64,000 bases of DNA, taken from a phage. Of this stretch, positions 2,989 through 50,080 are shown one piece after another. Within the stretch, counting starts at the first letter, position 1. The number at the start of each line of letters is the position of its first letter. The stretch lies in the sequence record NC_104726.1; one strand, 5' to 3'. Below the pieces are notes generated by a model, which made no database searches, was not told where the DNA came from, and saw only the letters and a list, made by a program, of their open reading frames with translations. The translations under genes and the position numbers were made by a program.

Positions 2989-3409
2989 TGCAAAAGCTTT
3001 TGGTGAGACAGCGGTACAAAGAGGCCAGGCTATGGGACTGGCACTACCTTTCGTCTTAAAAGAGCACTTTACAGATTTTCAACTTATCAAGGGTGATAAG
3101 GGAATTCTTATCCTGGAGCATAAGTTGAGTAAGAAACGCTATAAAGTTGTTTTTAATTCTAAAGCTCCAACAAAACTGGGATTCAGAACTTACAATCTTA
3201 ACCCATCCTACACTAAGGGTGTAGGAAGAGTAGAACAACAGCATTTCAGTGCCAGAGCTTCTTTAGCCCCTTTGATGCTAAATTTTTCAGGGGTGGCTTT
3301 AGGATACCTTGACAAGAAAAGAGTTCTTCATGTCCGTTTCACAGACTTTGTAACGCTTTTAGCTAACAATGAGGTAGATGAAAAGGGACGTGTAAAAACA
3401 AACTTCTAA
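2951..3409 (+). CDS. hypothetical protein
   Basis: Track ORF, co-oriented; no motif. Confidence 0.35.
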   Translation: MIKSIDLTKELTDAKAFGETAVQRGQAMGLALPFVLKEHFTDFQLIKGDKGILILEHKLSKKRYKVVFNSKAPTKLGFRTYNLNPSYTKGVGRVEQQHFSARASLAPLMLNFSGVALGYLDKKRVLHVRFTDFVTLLANNEVDEKGRVKTNF

Positions 3410-3436
3410 TAACGCATAGTATGATTGGAGACAGCA

Positions 3437-3628
3437 ATGACACTAAAGTTAACAGTTCCAGACAGCTTTTCAGAAAACTTTATCCCAGAAATGATGGATA
3501 AGATGCGATCATTGCTTGATCAGATTGAAGAGGCTGTTTGGGAAGACGATGCTGTAGTGGCTAACGAGCTGGTAGATAAGTGTAAAAGTATTATTGATGC
3601 AGTTGAAGAATACCACGGAGGTTTTTGA
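3437..3628 (+). CDS. hypothetical small acidic protein
   Basis: ATG at 3437 preceded by GGAGA; in frame with track ORF 3425..3628. Confidence 0.35.
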   Translation: MTLKLTVPDSFSENFIPEMMDKMRSLLDQIEEAVWEDDAVVANELVDKCKSIIDAVEEYHGGF

Positions 3629-4242
3629 TGGATATTATTGTTCTTAACGCCCCACCTAGTAGTGGTAAGGATCACATTGCAGATCTCTTGTTGGAAGCTA
3701 TTCCTAACTCACACCATCATGAGGTTAAGGAGATGCTCTTCAGCGTGGCAATTAAGGCAGCTGGTGTAACTCCTCAACTCTGGAATGCACTTTATGACCG
3801 CCACTACAAAGAAGAGCCTTGCCCTTTCTTAATGATAGACGGTAAGCATGTTTCTCCGCGAGAGTGGATGATCCATTGTAGTGAAAATCTGATTAAACCT
3901 ATCTTTGGTGAAGATGCTTTCGGTAAGGCCGCAGTCACATCCTTGAAGAAAGATTTCCCTAAAGGTAAAGGGGTTGTTGTTTACTCCGATGGTGGATTCA
4001 AAGAGGAGCTGGCATGCCTTAGTGAGTACGCATACAGCACAGGTGGAGATCTGTTGTTGTTCCGTATTCACCGTGTCGGATATGACTGGGGAAATGATTC
4101 CAGAACCTATCTAAGTCTGGAAAAGAACGGAATAAAAGGGATTGAGTTCGATGTTGTAAACCCTGAAGGTGCACCTTGGGAGTGTGCATCGGAGATTGTG
4201 TGCAAGTATATTGATGCTAAAGAGGCCCAAGAAGAATGTTAA
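3625..4242 (+). CDS. P-loop dNMP kinase-like protein
   Basis: N-terminal IIVLNAPPSSGKDHIADLL resembles the T4 gp1 dNMP kinase P-loop; GGAGG RBS. Confidence 0.5.
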   Translation: MMDIIVLNAPPSSGKDHIADLLLEAIPNSHHHEVKEMLFSVAIKAAGVTPQLWNALYDRHYKEEPCPFLMIDGKHVSPREWMIHCSENLIKPIFGEDAFGKAAVTSLKKDFPKGKGVVVYSDGGFKEELACLSEYAYSTGGDLLLFRIHRVGYDWGNDSRTYLSLEKNGIKGIEFDVVNPEGAPWECASEIVCKYIDAKEAQEEC

Positions 4243-4829
4243 TCGGAATTGATGTAGATTTGACACTGGTAGATTCAGGAACAGCATGGTGGGAGTGGTT
4301 GGAGCGTTTGTATGGTCCAGCCAGTAAGACAGTCGCTAAACCTTCTAATGGACTGATGTATTACGATCTGTCAAAGTATTGGCCTGATCGCCCCAAAGAA
4401 AACATCATAGGGCCTTTTGATTTCTGGAGTGACCCATTCCTCTACGACTTTCTTAAGCCTGAAGAGGGGGCTATTGAGGTTATGAAAGATTTGGTGGCTC
4501 GTGGTCACAAGCTTGCATTTATCTCGGTATGCAAGAAAGGTCACCTTGCATCTAAATCAAGGTTCTTAAAGCGTTGGACCAGTGATTTTATGGATCTGGA
4601 CGATCACACCCAGGGTCACGGCTTCTACGCCACACATTTCAAAGGAAATGTGGCTGTAGATGTTATAATTGACGACAGGCATGAATACCTCAACCAATTC
4701 GCTTCACGACCTGAAGTTATTAAAATCCTAAAAGATACGCCTTATGAGCAATTCGAGGAGTTAAAGGTCAGTATTGACTATACCGCCAATAGCTGGTATA
4801 AAATAGGAAAGTTTTTAGAAGGTATTTGA
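4236..4829 (+). CDS. HAD-superfamily 5'(3')-deoxyribonucleotidase-like protein
   Basis: HAD motif I IGIDVDLTLVD at N-terminus and DVIIDDRHEY near C-terminus; start overlaps upstream stop. Confidence 0.5.
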   Translation: MLIGIDVDLTLVDSGTAWWEWLERLYGPASKTVAKPSNGLMYYDLSKYWPDRPKENIIGPFDFWSDPFLYDFLKPEEGAIEVMKDLVARGHKLAFISVCKKGHLASKSRFLKRWTSDFMDLDDHTQGHGFYATHFKGNVAVDVIIDDRHEYLNQFASRPEVIKILKDTPYEQFEELKVSIDYTANSWYKIGKFLEGI

Positions 4830-4830
4830 A

Positions 4831-5031
4831 ATGGGCAGATGTTCTAAAGGTGGCGATCCTGTAGTCAGATACGGAGACTGGCTAGAGGTATATAATCTGG
4901 AGGGAAAGCTAGTGTATGCTTCCAGGATCACCCAGGATATGTGCTCTGATATGTTTAACAGGTACCTTGCATTTAAGGCCAACATAAACCCAGACGAAAT
5001 TTCCAAAATTAAAACAAGGAGAGCTAAATAA
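4831..5031 (+). CDS. hypothetical small protein
   Basis: Track ORF, co-oriented. Confidence 0.3.
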   Translation: MGRCSKGGDPVVRYGDWLEVYNLEGKLVYASRITQDMCSDMFNRYLAFKANINPDEISKIKTRRAK

Positions 5032-6014
5032 TGCTAAAACTGTGCACTGCAAAGATTATTGCTGACAGCATTTCCGAGAAAGGTAAGCGTATAACCACTT
5101 TTGAGCTAGAGTATCCTAGAATCATTCACTCTGAACTCATGACACACCGAGTTTTCAGCAGAAACGCCATGTCCTCTCGTGCAGTACCTGTTAACAAAAT
5201 GCTGCAGCAGGTTGTGGAAAATCCTGCAATGCCAGTTCGTTTTGGTGTAAACCAGCGAGGTATGGAGGATGGTGGCGATCACGATCAGAAGATCCGTGTA
5301 GAGTATACTGATCTTGAGTTCTCTCCTGAAGAGTTCTGGAAAGAAGCTGCCAAAAATGCAGCCTGGCATGCAGAGAAGTTCGCACTTGCTGGTTACCATA
5401 AGCAAGTGTGTAACCGCTTAGTGGAGCCTTTTCAACGCATGAAAACAGTTGTAACAAGCACAGAGTGGAATAATTTTTTCCATCTCCGTTGCTGGCACGA
5501 TGCGGATCCTACGATTCAGATGTTGGCTAATTGTATGTGGGAAGCTCTTGTGAATAGCACTCCTGAAATCCTTAAACCAGGGCAATGGCACACTCCATAT
5601 GTAGAGCACGTTTATTTGGACGGAGAGTTTAACTACGCTGTACTTGACACAGAAGGAAAGCTCTGCATTCTCGATACTAAAGAAGCTCTGTCTATCAGTG
5701 CTAGTTGCTGTGCACAAGTATCTTATCGAAATATTGACAGCACGTTTGAAAAGGCAGACAGTGTGGCTAAAAAATTGATTGGTGGGGATCGTATCCATGC
5801 AAGCCCTTACGAGCACCAGGCAACACCTATGGATCACGATAACGCAATGGAACGTTTAAACTACTACCTGTCTTCATGTGAAATCACACAAGACAGCTGT
5901 GTTTGGCAGGAAGGTGTAACCCATCAAGACCGTGATGGTAAATTCTGGTCTGCCAACTTTTGTGGGTGGGTTCAGCACAGACAACTGCTTAATAACCACT
6001 TCGTGAAATGTTAA
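5031..6014 (+). CDS. ThyX-like (flavin-dependent thymidylate synthase family) protein, divergent
   Basis: THRVFSRNAMSS fits the HR-x7-S part of the ThyX RHR-x7-S signature (first R is T); AAGGAG RBS; sits among nucleotide-metabolism genes. Confidence 0.4.
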   Translation: MLKLCTAKIIADSISEKGKRITTFELEYPRIIHSELMTHRVFSRNAMSSRAVPVNKMLQQVVENPAMPVRFGVNQRGMEDGGDHDQKIRVEYTDLEFSPEEFWKEAAKNAAWHAEKFALAGYHKQVCNRLVEPFQRMKTVVTSTEWNNFFHLRCWHDADPTIQMLANCMWEALVNSTPEILKPGQWHTPYVEHVYLDGEFNYAVLDTEGKLCILDTKEALSISASCCAQVSYRNIDSTFEKADSVAKKLIGGDRIHASPYEHQATPMDHDNAMERLNYYLSSCEITQDSCVWQEGVTHQDRDGKFWSANFCGWVQHRQLLNNHFVKC

Positions 6015-6043
6015 TCCTATCACAGCGATAGGTAACTTTTGTG

Positions 6044-6072
6044 TTGACTAATAGTATCAGATAATCTATAAT
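6044..6072 (+). promoter_or_regulatory. sigma70-like promoter (TTGACT-17-TATAAT)
   Basis: -35 at 6044-6049, -10 at 6067-6072. Confidence 0.55.
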
Positions 6073-6100
6073 AATGGCTCACTTTGTTGGTGAGCCAGAA

Positions 6101-6574
6101 ATGGAGACAGATATGAGTAATGTTATGATTCCTAAAAAGACATTTATTTCAGTTACTTTAGATTTCCTAGCTACCGTCCCTGGGTTTAACGTTCGCACAC
6201 GAAACGGTCTCCGAGCTGCACTCTTTGCCGTAGGGTTTGATTTAAAAAGTATTGATGTTCTTCGTGGAAAAAACGTTCGATGCAAAAATAAGCCAACACA
6301 TTATCGAAAGGCAGATGTATTTGCTGGTGTTATGCGTGCAGACTTTAGATACCCGCAAATGTATAACGGTGTAGATATTTTAGATGTGGATAAAGCACCT
6401 GGTGAGGCAATGCTTGTTCAAGATCTCCCGTATGATATCCCAGTAGAGGATCGTGTTAATGTAAGAAAGTATACAAAACAATCTGAAAAGGCTGAAGATA
6501 TTCATATTGTTGATGAACCTTTCAATTTTGAAGATCTGCATCGCCTGGAAAAATTATTCGGTATTGAAAGCTAA
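6101..6574 (+). CDS. hypothetical protein
   Basis: Track ORF 6074..6574; the ATG at 6074 lies within 2 nt of the -10, so a downstream ATG (6101 or 6113) is the likelier start. Confidence 0.35.
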   Translation: METDMSNVMIPKKTFISVTLDFLATVPGFNVRTRNGLRAALFAVGFDLKSIDVLRGKNVRCKNKPTHYRKADVFAGVMRADFRYPQMYNGVDILDVDKAPGEAMLVQDLPYDIPVEDRVNVRKYTKQSEKAEDIHIVDEPFNFEDLHRLEKLFGIES

Positions 6575-6584
6575 GGTGGTGAAG

Positions 6585-6815
6585 ATGAGTCATAACTCCA
6601 AGTGGAAGGATCTTGGTTTTGCAAGTCGGGCAGAATATGTTGGTTGGCTTTGGTTCAACGGCCTGACAAACGATATTAAAATGTATGATGATGTTTATTA
6701 TGACGAGTATACAGGCAAAATTATAAATATCTCTGTAGAAGAGGATACCTTTATCCAGCAAGATACTGATACCTGCCTTGATAAATACGTTAATGAAGTG
6801 GAGGAAGCAAATTGA
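6585..6815 (+). CDS. hypothetical small protein
   Basis: ATG at 6585 after AAGGTGG; in frame with track ORF 6507..6815. Confidence 0.35.
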   Translation: MSHNSKWKDLGFASRAEYVGWLWFNGLTNDIKMYDDVYYDEYTGKIINISVEEDTFIQQDTDTCLDKYVNEVEEAN

Positions 6816-9127
6816 TCACCAAGGTAATTAAAAGCAACGGATGTGAAGTGGCATTCGATCCAGAACGTTTAAATAAGGCAGCTATTTTCGGTGACGACGG
6901 TAACGGCAATTGGTCACATATTGCACTGGATGCATACAAACGACTGTATGATGGATGCACAACCAAAGAAGTTAACCAAGCTATTATAGACTCCTGTGTT
7001 AGCCGTAAAGACGAAGCACATTCCCGTATGGCTGGTCGTGTTCTTATTGGTCAGATTTATAAAGAGGCTTTTGGAGGGTTTACAAAGATCCCTTCCTTAC
7101 CATCATTTTACAACGACATGGTTGAGAAAGGGTATTGGGAGGATATGGGTTATAGCTTTACCGAGTTAAACACTTTAGGCACTGTTATTGATCACAGTAA
7201 AGATCTCGGTTATGGCTATGCAGTCCTTAAACAGTTTCGCGACAAATACGGGATCAAGGATACTCTTAAAGACACCTTGTTTGAATCTCCTCAGATGATG
7301 TTTATGGGGATAGCAATGGCTGTCATGAAGAATATGCCGAAAGAACGTCGTATCAACGATGTTGTAAAATTATACACTTATCTGTCCGACTTAAAGATCA
7401 ATGCCCCGACACCGTACTTAAACGGTCTGCGCACAGGTAAGACAGGGTATGCATCTTGTTGTGTAATAAAAGCTGACGATACAGCAAAATCTATTGGTGT
7501 GGCACGTGAAGTTGCGTACACAATGACGGTTAACCAAGCAGGTATCGGCTACTACTTATCCTCAAGATCTGCAGGCGATGGTGTTCGTGGTAACACTATT
7601 AAACATATGGGTAAGATTCCATATTATCGAGGTATTGATGCTGGGGTTAAGGAGAACAGACAACAATCACGTGGTGGTTCTGCAACAGTATCATTCCTTG
7701 CACTGGACCCGCAGATTGATGAGCTAATCCGTTTGAGAAACCCTATGACTGTTGCTTCAAAAAGAATCAACACCATGGACTACTCCATCGGTATTAATAG
7801 GTCGTTTATCAACCGTGTGGCTAAGAATTTGGATTGGATGCTTGTTTCTTATAAGCACGCGCCTCAACTGCATGAGGGTATCTTCACCATGTCTATGGAG
7901 GAGTTTGATGCAGAGGTTGATCGTATCGCTAAAGATGACAGTATTCCTAAAACATGGATCCGAGCTAGAGATCTTGCTGTTGAGCTGATCACGCAGCGTA
8001 CCGAGGTGGGAAGACTGTACGTATACTGGACAGATGAGATGAATAGACATACACCTTTTAAAGATGTGATCTATTCAAGTAACCTGTGTGCAGAAATAGC
8101 TCTCCCGACAAAAGGCTATTCAGATATGCGTAATATCTTCAAGCACGATGTTGATGATGGCGAAGTTGCATTGTGCTTCCTGTCATCTCTTGTAGCTGGG
8201 AGGGTTACCCCAGAGGAGTATGAGGATGTTGCATACTACACGGTGCTTATGATTGACAATGTTATGGAAATCATGACATATCCGTATGAAAATATGGAGA
8301 GCACTGTTAAAAAACGCAGATCCATCGGGGTTGGCCTTACCAATGTTGCACATTTTATTGCCAGCCACAAGGTTACTTACGGATCTCCTGAAAGTAAACA
8401 GCTTGTTCACGATCTTGCAGAACTTCACAGCTACAGCTTGCATAAGGCAAGTTTACGGTTGGCAAAAGAGCGTGGTGTCTGCGAGTGGATGCATAAGACA
8501 AAATATCCAGAAGGTTGGTTACCAATCGACACCTATAACAAAGAGGTCGATAGCGTGGTGAAAGATCCTTCTCTTAAACAGGATTGGGAAGGGTTACGTA
8601 AAGAGATCATTGAAAATGGTGGGCTACGTAATAGCGTTCTTGAAGCATATATGCCTAATGAAAGCTCTTCGCTGGCAACAAACACCACTAACGGGGTTTA
8701 TCCTGTCCGTGAGCACATTATCTTTAAAAAGTCGCCACAAGGGCAGGTGCTGTTTATCGTTCCTGACTATGATGAGTTGAAAGAGTATTACACTTCGGCT
8801 TGGGATGTTGATACTAACGACATGATCGATATGTATGCTGTGATTCAAAAATTCACAGGTCAGGCAATCAGCGCGGATTTGTACATAGACTACACCAAGT
8901 TGAAAGATGGTAAAATTTCAATGAAGGAGCAGCTAGGGTACCTTATCCGTGCCACTAAATTCGGAATGAAGACATGGTATTATTTAAACTCTAGGGTTGG
9001 TGCTGGCGACTCCTTGGCAGAGGAACTTCATGCCAAGAAACAGGCTGAAGATGAAACCAGAAAGAACTATCCTTTGAATGCAGATAGTTCAGTTGAAGAT
9101 CAGTATTGCGAAAGTTGTGCACTATAA
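6812..9127 (+). CDS. nrdA: class Ia ribonucleotide reductase alpha subunit
   Basis: N-terminal ATP-cone-like VIKSNGCEVAFDPERL, active-site NLCAEIALPT, C-terminal Cys pair CESC; 771 aa; TTG start after GGAGGAAG. Confidence 0.9.
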   Translation: MITKVIKSNGCEVAFDPERLNKAAIFGDDGNGNWSHIALDAYKRLYDGCTTKEVNQAIIDSCVSRKDEAHSRMAGRVLIGQIYKEAFGGFTKIPSLPSFYNDMVEKGYWEDMGYSFTELNTLGTVIDHSKDLGYGYAVLKQFRDKYGIKDTLKDTLFESPQMMFMGIAMAVMKNMPKERRINDVVKLYTYLSDLKINAPTPYLNGLRTGKTGYASCCVIKADDTAKSIGVAREVAYTMTVNQAGIGYYLSSRSAGDGVRGNTIKHMGKIPYYRGIDAGVKENRQQSRGGSATVSFLALDPQIDELIRLRNPMTVASKRINTMDYSIGINRSFINRVAKNLDWMLVSYKHAPQLHEGIFTMSMEEFDAEVDRIAKDDSIPKTWIRARDLAVELITQRTEVGRLYVYWTDEMNRHTPFKDVIYSSNLCAEIALPTKGYSDMRNIFKHDVDDGEVALCFLSSLVAGRVTPEEYEDVAYYTVLMIDNVMEIMTYPYENMESTVKKRRSIGVGLTNVAHFIASHKVTYGSPESKQLVHDLAELHSYSLHKASLRLAKERGVCEWMHKTKYPEGWLPIDTYNKEVDSVVKDPSLKQDWEGLRKEIIENGGLRNSVLEAYMPNESSSLATNTTNGVYPVREHIIFKKSPQGQVLFIVPDYDELKEYYTSAWDVDTNDMIDMYAVIQKFTGQAISADLYIDYTKLKDGKISMKEQLGYLIRATKFGMKTWYYLNSRVGAGDSLAEELHAKKQAEDETRKNYPLNADSSVEDQYCESCAL

Positions 9128-10258: not shown

Positions 10259-10537
10259 ATGAGCTGCGAAAAATCTTTTTTCATCATCATTTACGGTAAG
10301 GATAACTGCCCACATTGTGTCAGAGCAAAAGAATTTGCAATCAGCAAAGGTCTGCCTTTTGTATATAAGACACTTGGCGAGGGCTACACAAAAGAAGAGC
10401 TTATTGAGAAGTGTAGTCCAATCGTCCCCCGAACGTTGCCGCAGATCTTCTTAGAAAGCGATCTTGACAGTATCCATATAGGCGGTGCCGACGATTTCAT
10501 CTCTTTTGTTAAGAATGGTTTTGGAGAGAAAAAGTGA
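10259..10537 (+). CDS. glutaredoxin (NrdH/NrdC-like redoxin)
   Basis: CPHC active site in a 92 aa thioredoxin-fold ORF between nrdB and nrdD. Confidence 0.75.
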   Translation: MSCEKSFFIIIYGKDNCPHCVRAKEFAISKGLPFVYKTLGEGYTKEELIEKCSPIVPRTLPQIFLESDLDSIHIGGADDFISFVKNGFGEKK

Positions 10538-11394
10538 AAGTTGTAAAACGGGACGGTAGAGAAGAGTTCTATAACGGAATTAAGGTGATCAAGGCGGCAG
10601 AGTCCGCCTTACTTGAGTCTGGACATACTGAAGAAGAAGCTTACCGGATCGCTTGTGCGGTTAATGAAGTTGTTGCTAACAATCTGCCAACCGACCAGTG
10701 CACGATCTCTGTAAAAAATATCCATATCCTTGTTGAAGATGCTCTTATGGATATGGGTTTAAAATGTGCAGCCAGAGAATACATCCAGTATAGACAGACA
10801 AGAGATAATAACAGAGAGGCAGGTGGAAAACTGCTTGCAGATATTAGTGGCTTCTTGGATCGAACTTGTGATGAATTTACAAAAGAAAACGCAAATAAGC
10901 CTACTAATCATGTACACACTCATCGCGACCTGCTTGCAGGTATTCTTAGCAAACACCTTGCATCAACACAGATCCTGCCAGACCGTGTCTCCGAAGAGCA
11001 CAATAAAGGCTTCATCCATGTGCATGATCTTGACTACTTGATCAGTCCGTTAACAAACTGTTGCTTGGTAAATTATCCAGATATGTTGGAAAACGGATTC
11101 AACATTGGTAACGCCCATGTCAGTAAGCCGAAGTCAATAGGGGTTGCAACAACAATCCTTAGCCAAATCTCTAGTGCGGTAGCTAGTGCTCAATATGGTG
11201 GTCAGACTATGAGCCATATTGATCATTATCTGGCACAGTATGCTGAAGCGACCTATGAGAAGAACCTTAAATTTTGCCAGGAACATTGGTTGCCAGATGC
11301 TGAAACTGTTGCAATGCAAATGACAGATAAAGACGTGTTTGACAGCATGCAGACGTTGCTTTATCAGATCAACACACTAACCTCGGTAAACGGT
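10534..11394 (+). CDS. nrdD: anaerobic ribonucleotide reductase, exon 1
   Basis: GTG start overlapping upstream stop; N-terminal ATP-cone-like region; frame closes at a stop inside the intron. Confidence 0.85.
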
Positions 11395-11684
11395 TAACAA
11401 ACTGGCCGTTTTAAAACTCTGCTAACCTTAGTATGAGGGGTCAGCTGATCGCTGGCTAACGGGGAACGCTAAGGCGAAAGCTATGCCAATCCCGTGACTA
11501 GCTTCACAAGGAGTGAGGCGGTTGTAACGACTAACCTTTTGGTGTAGGGATTATGGAAGATTCCGAAACGCAGGGGTCTGATTAAGAATCACACGGTGTG
11601 ATTTCAGGCAAGAGATAGTCTGGCCTTGTGGAAACATAAGGGTGGGGACCGCAAACCCCTTTTATCACATTAAGTTTAGGACTG
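11395..11684 (+). other. group I self-splicing intron in nrdD (no ORF)
   Basis: 290 nt between nrdD halves; P-, Q-, R-, S-like elements (AACGGGGAACGC, CAATCCCGTG, GTAACGACTAA, AAGAGATAGTCT) in order; P1 pairing 11388-11394 with 11405-11411 (U-G at splice site); ends in G at 11684. Confidence 0.8.
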
Positions 11685-12914
11685 GATACCTCGGTCTTTG
11701 GTAGAATGATTACCAAAAATTACTTGAAAGTCCACAAAATGGGTCTTGGTGAAGAACGGATCACACCTGTGTTCCCTAAAGTGCTGTTCTTCCTAGAAGA
11801 GGGTGTCAACATGAACCCTGAGGATCCTAACTATGATTTGAAACGATTAGCTCTGGAATGCTGTGCAGAACGTATCTACCCTGACTTCGTATCTGTACCA
11901 CTAAATAGAAAAGTGACAGGCTCGACAGATGGCAAAGTAACGAGCATGGGTTGCCGGAGTTTTCTTAGCAAATACAGTGACTTGGAAACAGGCGAGGAGA
12001 AATATCTTGGCAGATTTAACTTAGGCGTTGTTAGCCTTAACCTACCAATGATTGCGGCAAAAGCTAAGACGGAAGGTGTTGATTTCTTTGCAGTTCTTGA
12101 CGAATACTTGGATCTTGCATACGAGGCTCACCTTGTAAGGGTTAACCGTCTAAAAGGAACAAAGGCAGGGCAGAACCCCATCATGTGGTGTGAAGGAGCT
12201 CTTGCTCGCCTGGATCCTGAAGAGAGTATTGATAAACTCTTCTATGACGGGTACGCTTCCATCAGCATTGGGTATATTGGTGTGTATGAAACCTGTCAGA
12301 TTTTGGGTAGAGAGGGTGACAAGGCTTTAGCTCTTGGAATCCTTCAGCACATGAGAGATGCTTGTGAGCGATACAAGAAGGAAAGTAGACTAGCGTTTAG
12401 CTTGTACGGCACTCCTTCTGAGAGTCTATGCTATAAAGCTGCAACCTGTCTGGATCGTGAATATCCGGAAGTGTTGAAGCACGAGCATGAATATCTCACC
12501 AACAGTTTCCATCAGCCAGTATGGATCAATAGCTCTCCTTTTGATAAGTGGGAGTATGAGGAAGGTTTTGCTATGATCTCCTCCGGTGGCAACATCGGAT
12601 ACGTAGAGACACCTAACCTGAAAAACAACCTTGATGCTTTAGAGGCTCTTGTTGACTTCGGGTATAAACACATTATGTATTTTGGTATTAACCAACCTGT
12701 GGATAAATGTCTCAAGTGTGGTTTCTCTGGTGAGTTCAGTGCAACAGCTAAAGGGTTCTGCTGCCCTGCGTGCGGATGCCACGATGAACAATATATCTCA
12801 GTGATCCGAAGAGTGTCTGGATACCTTTCCAGTCCTAACTCCCGTCCTTACAATAAAGGTAAGCAAGCGGAAGTTATCGAGCGAGTTAAGCACTACGGAA
12901 GTTGTGGTTGCTGA
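11685..12914 (+). CDS. nrdD: anaerobic ribonucleotide reductase, exon 2
   Basis: In-frame continuation DTSVFGRMITKN...; C-terminal zinc ribbon CLKCG...CPACGC and glycyl-radical motif RVSGY. Confidence 0.85.
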   Translation, partial: DTSVFGRMITKNYLKVHKMGLGEERITPVFPKVLFFLEEGVNMNPEDPNYDLKRLALECCAERIYPDFVSVPLNRKVTGSTDGKVTSMGCRSFLSKYSDLETGEEKYLGRFNLGVVSLNLPMIAAKAKTEGVDFFAVLDEYLDLAYEAHLVRVNRLKGTKAGQNPIMWCEGALARLDPEESIDKLFYDGYASISIGYIGVYETCQILGREGDKALALGILQHMRDACERYKKESRLAFSLYGTPSESLCYKAATCLDREYPEVLKHEHEYLTNSFHQPVWINSSPFDKWEYEEGFAMISSGGNIGYVETPNLKNNLDALEALVDFGYKHIMYFGINQPVDKCLKCGFSGEFSATAKGFCCPACGCHDEQYISVIRRVSGYLSSPNSRPYNKGKQAEVIERVKHYGSCGC

Positions 12915-48837: not shown

Positions 48838-50080
48838 ATTGCAAACCCACCGGAGCGAAAGGTATGTCATCACAGAACTCATACTGTGCTGGATTCTGAT
48901 CCATTGGGTCATCTTCCTCATCATTTACAGGAGGAGCGTCTACAGTGTTTTGCTGTGGAGCTGCTTCCTGTTTGGCAGCCTGAGGTTCTTGATGGTCAGT
49001 GGACTCAGCACCGTTCTTGATCCAATCGTACAACGGCTCAGCCAGATTAGTCAAGACATCTTTTGCTTCTGCAGTAATTGCCGCTGCAAAATCATCAACT
49101 TTCGTTTTCTTGTCAATACGGCGACAAGCGTTCAACACCGCATTACCGACACTGGCACCTACTTCATCTTCAGTTCGGTTGGTGGCTTGAGCATACTCTT
49201 TCTTAAGCTCAATAGTGACTACGTGTAGTGTTTTAGCCACTCCTAGTGGGTCGTCTACCTTAAACCCGCGATCCAGGATGATTTGCAACGCATTGATGCT
49301 ATGCCCCGTTTCCACACCGATAGGGTCGTAAGAGGATTTACGCTTGCCACCAGAGCCTTGAGTACCGTTCTCTGCCTTAGGAGGATAGGCTTTGAAACCA
49401 CTGATAATGTTTCCGGTGTCTTTGTCAACAATGGCTGCAACACGACCACCTACCACCAGGTCTTTAAGCTGCTCATCAGTTACAACCATAGCACCTTCGC
49501 CAATCTTGTGGTCATTAACAGTAACCACGTTGCCAACAATCTGAGTCACATCACCATAGATGCGTAAAACGTCCTGATTGGCATTCTGCTGAGGTTTCTG
49601 CTTCTGGCCTTGTGATTGTGCACCTTGTTGCTGTTTTTGCTGCTGAGTCGCTGCTGGAGCCTCTCCTGCACCCAGCTTAACCATCTTAGCCAGTGAGCCT
49701 TTGTAGTAGGTCTTACCGTTATGCTCGTTTGCCTTCAAAGGGATATTTACGATCCATCCTGGCGTTACGGTTTCCCACTTGTCATCAATTTTAACAGAGA
49801 CAGAGTCTTGATGACCCGGTTTAAGCAGCTTATCGCCCATACTGATCCAAACTTCTTCACCACCTTGAAGTAGGTTATCAGAGGAATCCAGTTCAGAAAT
49901 CAGTAAAGAGATGGTGTGGCTGGACTCAATTTTCTTACCTTGCCACACAGTGGTTTTAATACCTGTTGTAGGATCAGCACCTTTGATAGGCTTGATGCTG
50001 ACGCGTTTAATCATGCCGTGAGCCAGTAAAACAGTTTCACGCGGATTCATCGGGTTAGCGAATTGTTGAATAACGCTCAT
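48809..50080 (-). CDS. putative ssDNA-binding protein
   Basis: Gln/Ala-rich linker and acidic tail ...[23 protein letters not shown] like the bacterial SSB C-terminal DDIPF; position next to replication genes. Confidence 0.4.

Follow-up and report, generated by a model that had tools for sequence, protein, structure and literature searches.

A ThyX-like protein with a circularly permuted fold closes a probable nucleotide-supply operon of rV5-like coliphages

The gene at positions 5031-6014 of sequence record NC_104726.1, a 64,000-nucleotide stretch of phage DNA that we call the window, encodes a ThyX-like protein of 327 amino acids whose ThyX fold is a circular permutation, broken at residue 60/61 of the Thermotoga maritima enzyme. 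We think it probable that the sequence here forms the 3' end of an early/middle operon in an rV5-like coliphage, that the operon boosts the supply of normal DNA precursors, and that its last gene is a permuted flavin-dependent thymidylate synthase. The 'thymidylate synthase' annotation of the gene is already known; the permuted topology and the family-wide replacement of the RHR motif by THR were not found described in the literature, our coverage of which is incomplete. The gene and its parts, with T. maritima ThyX (TM0449) as the canonical reference, are as follows.

5031-6014, + strand: ThyX-like flavin-dependent thymidylate synthase of the circularly permuted type, 327 amino acids (assigned from Pfam, PHROG, fold and profile-profile comparison).

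5091-5564, + strand: segment B, residues 21-178, equivalent to canonical 61-199, running from beta3 through the ThyX motif and the helical core to R153, the equivalent of R174.

5142-5180, + strand: ThyX motif variant THRVFSRNAMSSR, THR-x7-S, read from the translation as T38-H39-R40-V-F-S-R-N-A-M-S48-S49-R50.

5565-5819, + strand: segment A, residues 179-263, equivalent to canonical ~1-60 and lying behind the canonical C-terminus, with a beta hairpin, two helices and HASPYEH.

5796-5816, + strand: HASPYEH, equivalent to canonical H53-E-T-P-F-E58-H59, the flavin/folate-side motif (read from the translation).

5820-6011, + strand: C-terminal tail, residues 264-327, variable in the middle and ending in an invariant SxNFxGWxQxRQ, with WVQHR at 5967-5981.

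The protein matches the Pfam family Thy1 (PF02511) with E 1.3e-9 and PHROG 85, 'thymidylate synthase', with E 4.6e-112. The profile search against PF02511 that an earlier note on this DNA had proposed gives a score above the cut-off (38.6 bits against 24.8), covering model positions 60-190 only; the matches to PF02511 and to the NCBIfam equivalog TIGR02170 both start at model position 60 and lie within residues 22-180 of the protein. The same note had called the protein longer than typical ThyX, which it is, by about 100 amino acids over the canonical enzyme (220 in T. maritima). Both the partial profile matches and the extra length arise because the 60 N-terminal residues of the canonical chain have moved into the C-terminal half. 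An AlphaFold2 (AF2) model of the protein (predicted local distance difference test score, pLDDT, 82.7; predicted TM-score 0.82) has the ThyX fold, and its top Foldseek matches are all ThyX or PolB. Sequence searches of the PDB with the protein, by phmmer and by a 28-sequence profile, gave no match at E<=1, and homology to solved ThyX structures is visible by fold or profile-profile comparison only. PolB (PDB 4p5a), a UMP/dUMP C5-methylase of polyoxin biosynthesis, resembles the phage protein in its ThyX fold and shows that substrate divergence within this fold is possible; it differs in having the normal chain order and a sequence similar to T. maritima ThyX (E 3.7e-34), and the phage protein is no closer to PolB than to ordinary ThyX.

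The permutation was read from profile-profile alignment (hhalign) of a family profile of 247 sequences with a canonical profile built from TM0449, in a sequence 100% identical to PDB 1kq4, and 120 relatives. Two non-overlapping alignments were obtained in swapped order, one pairing residues 21-178 with T. maritima 61-199 (P 89%, E 2.2e-6) and the other pairing residues 221-263 with T. maritima 20-60 (P 91.5%, E 8.7e-7). With the canonical profile doubled in tandem, a single alignment ran from residue 21 to residue 263 across T. maritima 61-220 and then 1-60 (P 97.1%, E 5.6e-11), and it scored 85, against 52 and 49 for the separate pieces; the family alignment, once artificially re-permuted, likewise aligned with the normal profile in a single piece (E 7e-10). 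When the columns of canonical residues 1-60 were shuffled 100 times and aligned with the family's C-terminal half, scores averaged 10.4 +/- 2.3 with a maximum of 16.7, and reversed column order gave 13.4, against a real score of 51.6. Used alone as the query, the C-terminal half gave E 1.3e-9, with its real score about 18 standard deviations above the column shuffles. The order of secondary-structure elements assigned by DSSP to the AF2 model is consistent with the permutation. Canonical proteins carry the segment beta1-beta2-alpha1-alpha2-HxxPxEH ahead of beta3 and the ThyX motif, an order that the phage protein lacks: just 20 residues precede its beta3, and the alpha1-alpha2/HxxPxEH element would otherwise be absent.

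Could the C-terminal 150 residues instead be an unrelated accessory domain, whose likeness to the ThyX N-terminus is fortuitous? AF2 confidence is lowest in this part of the model, and the Thy1 match grew no longer in Pfam scans of the isolated C-terminal 147 amino acids or of a single sequence re-permuted artificially; profiles are required to see the permutation because the single-sequence signal is too weak. At the profile level, both the E-value of the relocated segment and that of the C-terminal half alone, its distance from the shuffled controls, and the fusion of the two pieces from scores of about 50 to 85 on the doubled profile all speak for a true permutation, as do the short N-terminus, which leaves the canonical element missing from anywhere else, and the relocated HxSPxEH, which is invariant and a target of inteins (see below). 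We regard a fortuitous likeness as very unlikely, and an artefactual permutation after these controls as unlikely. As for the origin of the arrangement, the tail may be a vestigial second copy of beta3-alpha3-RHR, which would fit an origin in which a tandem duplication later lost sequence from both of its ends. The resemblance between its WVQHR and canonical WFRHR is not significant (5 columns, E 0.31), this being the best local match when residues 264-327 were searched for a vestigial RHR, and we keep that idea as a lead only.

The altered motif noticed in the earlier note is real, with THR in place of canonical RHR in RHR-x7-S, and the histidine, the second arginine, the serine and the next arginine are retained. 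Mapped from T. maritima onto the phage protein, the residues that are kept are H79/R80 (H39/R40), N85 (N45), S88 (S48), R90 (R50), R147 (R129) and N169/L173/R174 (N148/L152/R153), together with H53/T55/P56/E58/H59 (H256/S258/P259/E261/H262) in the relocated segment. Those that are replaced are R78 (T38), E86 (A46), Y91 (A51), E144 (Q125), N163 (T142), R165 (T144) and H178 (D157), and R44 stands at the position of Y84. The replacing residues are themselves nearly invariant in the family. Four basic residues are newly invariant as well: R30, R44 (which lies in the loop linking the motif to S48), K124 and R317. With canonical ThyX/Thy1 proteins (T. maritima TM0449, PBCV-1 A674R, M. tuberculosis ThyX) the permuted type thus shares the kept positions and a genomic role beside ribonucleotide reductase (RNR) genes; it differs in placing canonical 1-60 after 61-220, in its THR, in its greater length, with one more strand at the N-terminus and a conserved tail (GNFxGWxQxR) at the other end, and in being nearly confined to phages of Gram-negative hosts.

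Two of the kept residues, R147 and R174, we take to be dUMP-binding residues of the T. maritima enzyme in addition to its four dUMP-hydrogen-bonding residues. Those four are R78, R80, S88 and R90 (PMC3498832). The equivalents R40, S48, R50, R129 and R153, which would bind uracil and phosphate, are all present and nearly invariant in the permuted family; one of the four contacts is lost because R78 is replaced by T38. The phosphate contact of the lost R78 would pass to an invariant arginine specific to the family, for which there are two candidates: R317 in the tail and, in the substrate loop, R44.

Conservation across the family was counted by column in the alignment of the 247 members. At the motif, T38 is found in 242/247, H39 in 247/247, R40 in 226/247, S48 in 246/247 and R50 in 247/247; in the relocated segment, H256 is found in 247/247, E261 in 243/247 and H262 in 246/247. 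Residues H39, R50, A51, R153, H187, H256 and R317 are invariant throughout the alignment, and N309, Q315 and R317 of the tail stay invariant even in members at 35-45% identity. The same conserved set occurs at that distance in N4 gp30, ICP1 gp193, Caulobacter phage CcrSwift, Rheinheimera phage Barba8S and Cellulophaga phage phiST, and some 50 columns, catalytic equivalents included, are invariant even among members at 35-57% identity.

A further sign of function comes from inteins, which characteristically target catalytic motifs. Homologues of 520-680 amino acids, considered as possible tandem duplications, proved to be intein-containing precursors, with C or S at the +1 position and an intein that ends in HN or GN. 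Many metagenomic homologues owe their length to such inteins (P0125, P0135, P0136, P0149, P0152, P0160, P0182, P0208, P0211, P0216, P0217, P0219, P0236, P0249 and P0264). At least five insertion sites are used, all within catalytic motifs: after H33; after R40, M41 or F42 of THR(xx); between S48 and S49; right after H256 of HxSPxEH; and inside the LRxxH/DA(D/Q)P motif, after the residue aligned with H156. Because inteins have inserted there, a functional role of the relocated HxSPxEH is supported. Might the protein be a catalytically dead ThyX relic, kept for a regulatory or structural role? The missing textbook RHR and a score under the TIGR02170 equivalog cut-off would suit such a relic; the invariant columns, the inteins at catalytic motifs and the conserved place in nucleotide-metabolism operons would not. 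Conservation makes a dead enzyme very unlikely, and we give this explanation next to no credence.

The family is large and belongs almost wholly to phages. A word-indexed search returned at least 7616 relatives, and an exhaustive search of 50%-identity representatives returned 5034 clusters at E<=1e-3, with 2011 at E<=1e-30. By tblastn, the permuted type occurs in 1035 of 50,697 phage records, among them Vequintavirinae, phi92/phAPEC8-like and PVP-SE1-like phages, ICP1, N4-like phages, PAK_P/KIL-like Pseudomonas phages and phiCbK-like phages. Cellular genomes clearly seldom carry it: when 185,579 bacterial and archaeal species, each represented by a single genome, were scanned for the motif, 7 loci were confirmed, a lower bound. 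Normal-order ThyX was found in 2142 phage records, chiefly of cyanophages and actinophages. The permuted ThyX-type gene of N4 (locus L003, 2477-4948) shares a gene block with the dCTP deaminase gp26, and to date its annotation reads no more than 'gp30'.

What does the permuted enzyme do? Most likely, in our view, it is an undescribed ThyX topology serving an ordinary supply of thymidylate (dTMP) rather than a modified-base pathway. The ordinary thymidylate pathway, one of two possibilities offered in the earlier note, is favoured by the conserved core residues, by the RNR, glutaredoxin and NrdD neighbours, by the dCTP deaminase near the N4 gene and by a gene exchange in Rheinheimera phages. 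The genomic context is nucleotide supply in every lineage examined: gp30 of N4 lies about 1 kb downstream of gp26; a phi92-like phage has the gene order kinase, HAD, ThyX-like, RNR; and in CcrSwift a deoxynucleoside monophosphate (dNMP) kinase gene stands directly upstream of the permuted ThyX-type gene. The exchange, which is the strongest of these arguments, is seen between Rheinheimera phages Barba18A and Barba8S, whose flanks are identical at 99.8% over 2480 bp and at 98.8% over 1949 bp. In the slot between glutaredoxin-like and RNR genes, Barba18A carries a 222-residue normal-order ThyX (HWTPFGH ... KHK-x7-S; locus L017, 2497-3145) and Barba8S a 303-residue permuted protein of the THR type with two small open reading frames (ORFs) (locus L018, 2481-3813); the two ThyX proteins have no BLASTP similarity (E 0.47). 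Since one cassette has replaced the other between near-identical flanks, both types appear to do the same job, and the swap suggests that the permuted type is interchangeable with normal-order ThyX. Vequintavirinae, moreover, are described as 'exceptionally susceptible' to restriction-modification systems and as phages that 'lack any effective protection' (PMC8594841). It is on the supply context, the Barba swap and this restriction sensitivity that we read the enzyme of the window as a dTMP synthase.

The other possibility in the earlier note was that the altered motif marks a pathway to a modified pyrimidine nucleotide. Here the ThyX-like enzyme would produce 5-hydroxymethyl-dUMP or another C5-substituted dUMP, the nucleotidase of the HAD superfamily encoded upstream would remove dTMP, and phosphorylation of the unusual dNMP would fall to the kinase encoded beside it, much as SPO1-type phages do it. 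The SPO1-type pathway to 5-hydroxymethyluracil (hmU) combines a ThyA-like dUMP hydroxymethylase, a dTMP phosphatase and a dNMP kinase encoded close together, and the window holds the same three kinds of activity in close company, so that its trio of kinase, 5'-nucleotidase and thymidylate synthase homologue resembles the enzyme set of an hmU phage. T5-type phages have the same gene trio, however, and their DNA is canonical. The altered substrate loop (R78T, E86A, Y91A) could also be read in favour of a modified base, as could the exocyclic methylene intermediate of ThyX, which a nucleophile could trap (PMC8989533). The known hmU pathways nevertheless use ThyA-family enzymes (PMC8989533), and the one-carbon transferase of the window has the ThyX fold and is not a ThyA-family dUMP hydroxymethylase of the kind used in thymidine replacement. 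THR, far from being a peculiarity of this phage, is shared by a family in about 1000 phages, N4, ICP1 and PAK_P-like phages included. We know of no report of modified thymine in the phages of this family. A near-identical Barba phage carries normal-order ThyX in the same slot, the restriction sensitivity of the Vequintavirinae tells against protective modification, and no sign of modified DNA was seen. No downstream hypermodification genes are annotated in the vicinity, and the rV5 annotation from position 50,000 to 137,947 holds no ThyA, dihydrofolate reductase or hypermodification genes; the literature, incompletely covered, yielded no nucleoside analysis of Vequintavirus DNA. The family distribution, the Barba swap and the ThyX rather than ThyA fold make a modified-pyrimidine pathway unlikely, indeed highly improbable in our estimation, and the proposal drawn from the altered motif finds no support.

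Several points nonetheless weigh against an ordinary, permuted dTMP synthase. The protein scores 39 with TIGR02170, whose cut-off is 87.9, and AF2 confidence is just 53-68 across residues 221-260, which hold the relocated helices. R78, counted among the residues that hydrogen-bond dUMP (PMC3498832), is a threonine, and positions E86, Y91, E144, N163, R165 and H178, invariant in our canonical sample, are all replaced, so that substrate or cofactor handling may differ. The canonical profile is of Thermotoga type only (at least 57% identity to TM0449), and 'invariant' canonical positions are therefore over-stated. Even the normal-order ThyX of Barba18A carries KHK where RHR would be expected, so that there too the textbook motif does not hold throughout, and restriction sensitivity would be compatible with a minor modification, 5-hmU for example. 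Finally, neither biochemical nor structural data turned up for any family member, and the literature, within our incomplete coverage, held no functional tests of the permuted family.

Some of these points bear on a change of specificity, in which the protein would carry out the same flavin-dependent C5 methylation on dUDP, dUTP or UMP (the last as in PolB), or would bind its flavin differently. The changes R78T, E86A, R165T and H178D are invariant and accompanied by the new invariant basic residues R30, R44, K124 and R317, and PolB shows that the ThyX fold can switch sugar specificity. Such a change would come about because residues presumed to touch the phosphate and the ADP part of FAD are among those replaced. 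Yet the family retains the equivalents of R80, S88, R90, R147 and R174, distant phages have a dNMP kinase gene conserved beside the ThyX-type gene, which fits a monophosphate product, and the Barba swap suggests interchangeability with normal ThyX. We hold a change of specificity to be quite unlikely. In a wider form, the replacement of R78, E86, Y91, R165 and H178 together with those new invariant residues makes it possible that the permuted THR type is a functionally diverged class, with other nucleotide or flavin binding (a di- or triphosphate substrate, or FMN), with resistance to inhibitors or defence factors aimed at cellular thymidylate synthases, or with a non-methyl C5 product in some lineages. 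This broader divergence we consider unlikely.

For the ordinary dTMP synthase that we prefer, a course of reaction can be proposed by analogy with ThyX, in which the methylene of methylenetetrahydrofolate (CH2-H4folate) passes to flavin N5 and then to C5 of dUMP, where it is reduced (PMC8989533). The chain starts at beta3, just ahead of the ThyX motif, and runs through the core; the beta hairpin, the two helices and HxSPxEH come only after it, and the conserved GWxQxR tail last. Judging from the established ThyX mechanism, the enzyme would be a flavin-containing oligomer, whose flavin would be reduced by NAD(P)H and take the methylene of CH2-H4folate on N5. From there the methylene would pass to C5 of a dUMP polarised by R153 (the equivalent of R174), and a final reduction would yield dTMP and H4folate. 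That the phage protein makes dTMP by this chemistry is what we infer from these parallels.

The neighbouring features of the operon are given here in order.

3628-4242, + strand: dNMP-kinase-like P-loop kinase, 204 amino acids from ATG 3628 (205 from TTG 3625), PHROG 139, overlapping the next gene by 7 nucleotides.

4236-4829, + strand: 5'(3')-deoxyribonucleotidase-like protein of the HAD superfamily, 197 amino acids, Pfam PF06941 (NT5C), PHROG 420.

4831-5031, + strand: conserved ORF of 66 amino acids, PHROG 4903 (unknown function; E 3.5e-35), a hypothetical protein in rV5 and Mangalyan.

6016-6032, + strand: weak terminator-like hairpin right after the ThyX stop codon (pattern scan, consensus match only).

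6044-6072, + strand: strong sigma-70-like promoter, TTGACT-17-TATAAT, with 11/12 consensus positions, opening the next transcription unit.

Within 3625-6014 four + strand ORFs abut or overlap (3625/3628-4242, 4236-4829, 4831-5031 and 5031-6014). The kinase-like, HAD-like and ThyX-like ORFs reported there earlier are all present. Their adjacency holds in so far as they form a tight + strand cluster; overlooked was the 66-residue ORF between the HAD and ThyX genes, which starts 2 nucleotides past the HAD stop and whose own stop codon overlaps the ThyX ATG by 1 nucleotide. With the hairpin and then the promoter directly downstream, the ThyX gene is the last of its transcription unit; rV5 has an annotated promoter, P106, at the position equivalent to 6044-6072. 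Further downstream lie nrdA, nrdB, glutaredoxin (grx), nrdD and nrdG.

The kinase-like protein matches PHROG 139, 'deoxynucleoside monophosphate kinase', with E 1.3e-44 and has no match in Pfam or NCBIfam. Relatives annotate it as such a kinase from ATG 3628, 5' of which stands GGAGG. Its AF2 model (pLDDT 90.7) finds the T4 gp1 dNMP kinase (1DEK) as the best PDB fold match by Foldseek (E 5.7e-6, query-normalised TM-score 0.51-0.57), and like a GKD-type P-loop kinase it carries a Walker-A-like APPSSGKD. It differs from T4 gp1 in the first Walker-A glycine, which is an alanine, in a TM-score of only about 0.5 and in sequence, where no homology to 1DEK was detectable by phmmer or by a 22-sequence profile against the PDB; the PDB matches of that profile were to Argonaute, which is spurious, and weakly to adenylate-kinase P-loops, with no T4 gp1. 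The HAD protein matches NT5C (PF06941) with E 5.1e-6 and PHROG 420 with E 3e-47, and some relatives annotate it as 'putative 5'(3')-deoxyribonucleotidase'. Like the 5'(3')-deoxyribonucleotidases of that family (human cdN/mdN) it scores above the Pfam gathering score, and both motif I (D6-V-D8-L-T) and motif IV (IIDD) can be read in its translation; unlike them, it matches weakly (26.9 bits against a cut-off of 24.8) and has no solved relative by sequence search. The kinase family occurs in 1524 phage records, T1-like phages among them, and the HAD family in 664; in ICP1 the two genes lie close together and are apparently adjacent. From these likenesses the kinase would convert dTMP and other dNMPs to dNDPs, as a T4-gp1-like enzyme, and the NT5C-like phosphatase would strip phosphate from pyrimidine dNMPs in pool balancing or a substrate cycle. 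These two roles, dNMP to dNDP and pyrimidine dNMP dephosphorylation, are predicted as the likely ones.

The phage is one of a closely related group. More than 100 genomes of rV5-like coliphages (Vequintavirus) match positions 3000-7000 of the window from end to end at 97-98% identity, and all 117 phage records that cover at least 80% of this interval at more than 90% identity are rV5-like. Escherichia phage V5/rV5 is among the close relatives, and its copy of the 327-residue gene is annotated 'FAD-dependent thymidylate synthase' (gp102/ORF106); the rV5 genome paper takes the gene as a plain thymidylate synthase amid ordinary nucleotide-metabolism genes (PMC3606486). About 20 'Campylobacter phage' records (MG0656xx; C15, A12a, D1, A147 and others, with Campylobacter jejuni in the host field) are 97% identical to the E. 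coli rV5-like phages over the whole query, and are probably mislabelled or contaminant genomes.

Some further observations concern the surroundings. Just upstream of the operon, at 2140-2988 on the + strand, lies a putative N6-adenine DNA methyltransferase gene (PHROG 5172), so annotated in rV5, Mangalyan and nom; rV5 has several further DNA methyltransferase genes, though the group is reported to be restriction-sensitive. Downstream, the anaerobic ribonucleotide reductase gene nrdD (10534-12914, + strand) is interrupted by a 257-nucleotide group I intron at 11395-11651, which matches Rfam RF00028 at full length with 29.8 bits (gathering score 50) and E 9e-6. Splicing at 11394|11652, where the cuts follow a U and a G, yields a single NrdD of 707 amino acids; it aligns colinearly with T4 NrdD, and around the junction 22 of 41 residues are identical; an alternative splice at 11387|11696 left a 17-residue gap against T4 NrdD and was replaced by this one. 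In rV5 nrdD is uninterrupted, and in Mangalyan, whose nrdD halves are annotated in GenBank as separate genes, an HNH endonuclease ORF occupies the same gap. Scans of the whole window found no tRNA genes and no match at the Rfam gathering threshold. The GC skew changes sign near 30 kb, with + strand genes before this point and - strand genes after it, in agreement with the convergent arrangement annotated in rV5.

ThyX is a textbook second, independent route to thymidylate and an antimicrobial target, with an active site built from three subunits of a tetramer. A permuted form of it is now seen in roughly 2% of the phages sequenced, and N4, ICP1, rV5/phi92 and PAK_P are model phages among them. 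For some 1000 database entries, the name 'FAD-dependent thymidylate synthase' thus stands on a profile match that is only partial, and the topology behind it is uncharacterised. The overlap between the N-terminal THR and the C-terminal QxR hints at an origin by duplication and truncation. For the rV5-like phage itself, nothing found indicates modified DNA, and the operon looks like an ordinary supply of dNTPs. For the enzyme family, a natural circular permutant with an altered motif would test which contacts of the composite ThyX site are essential.

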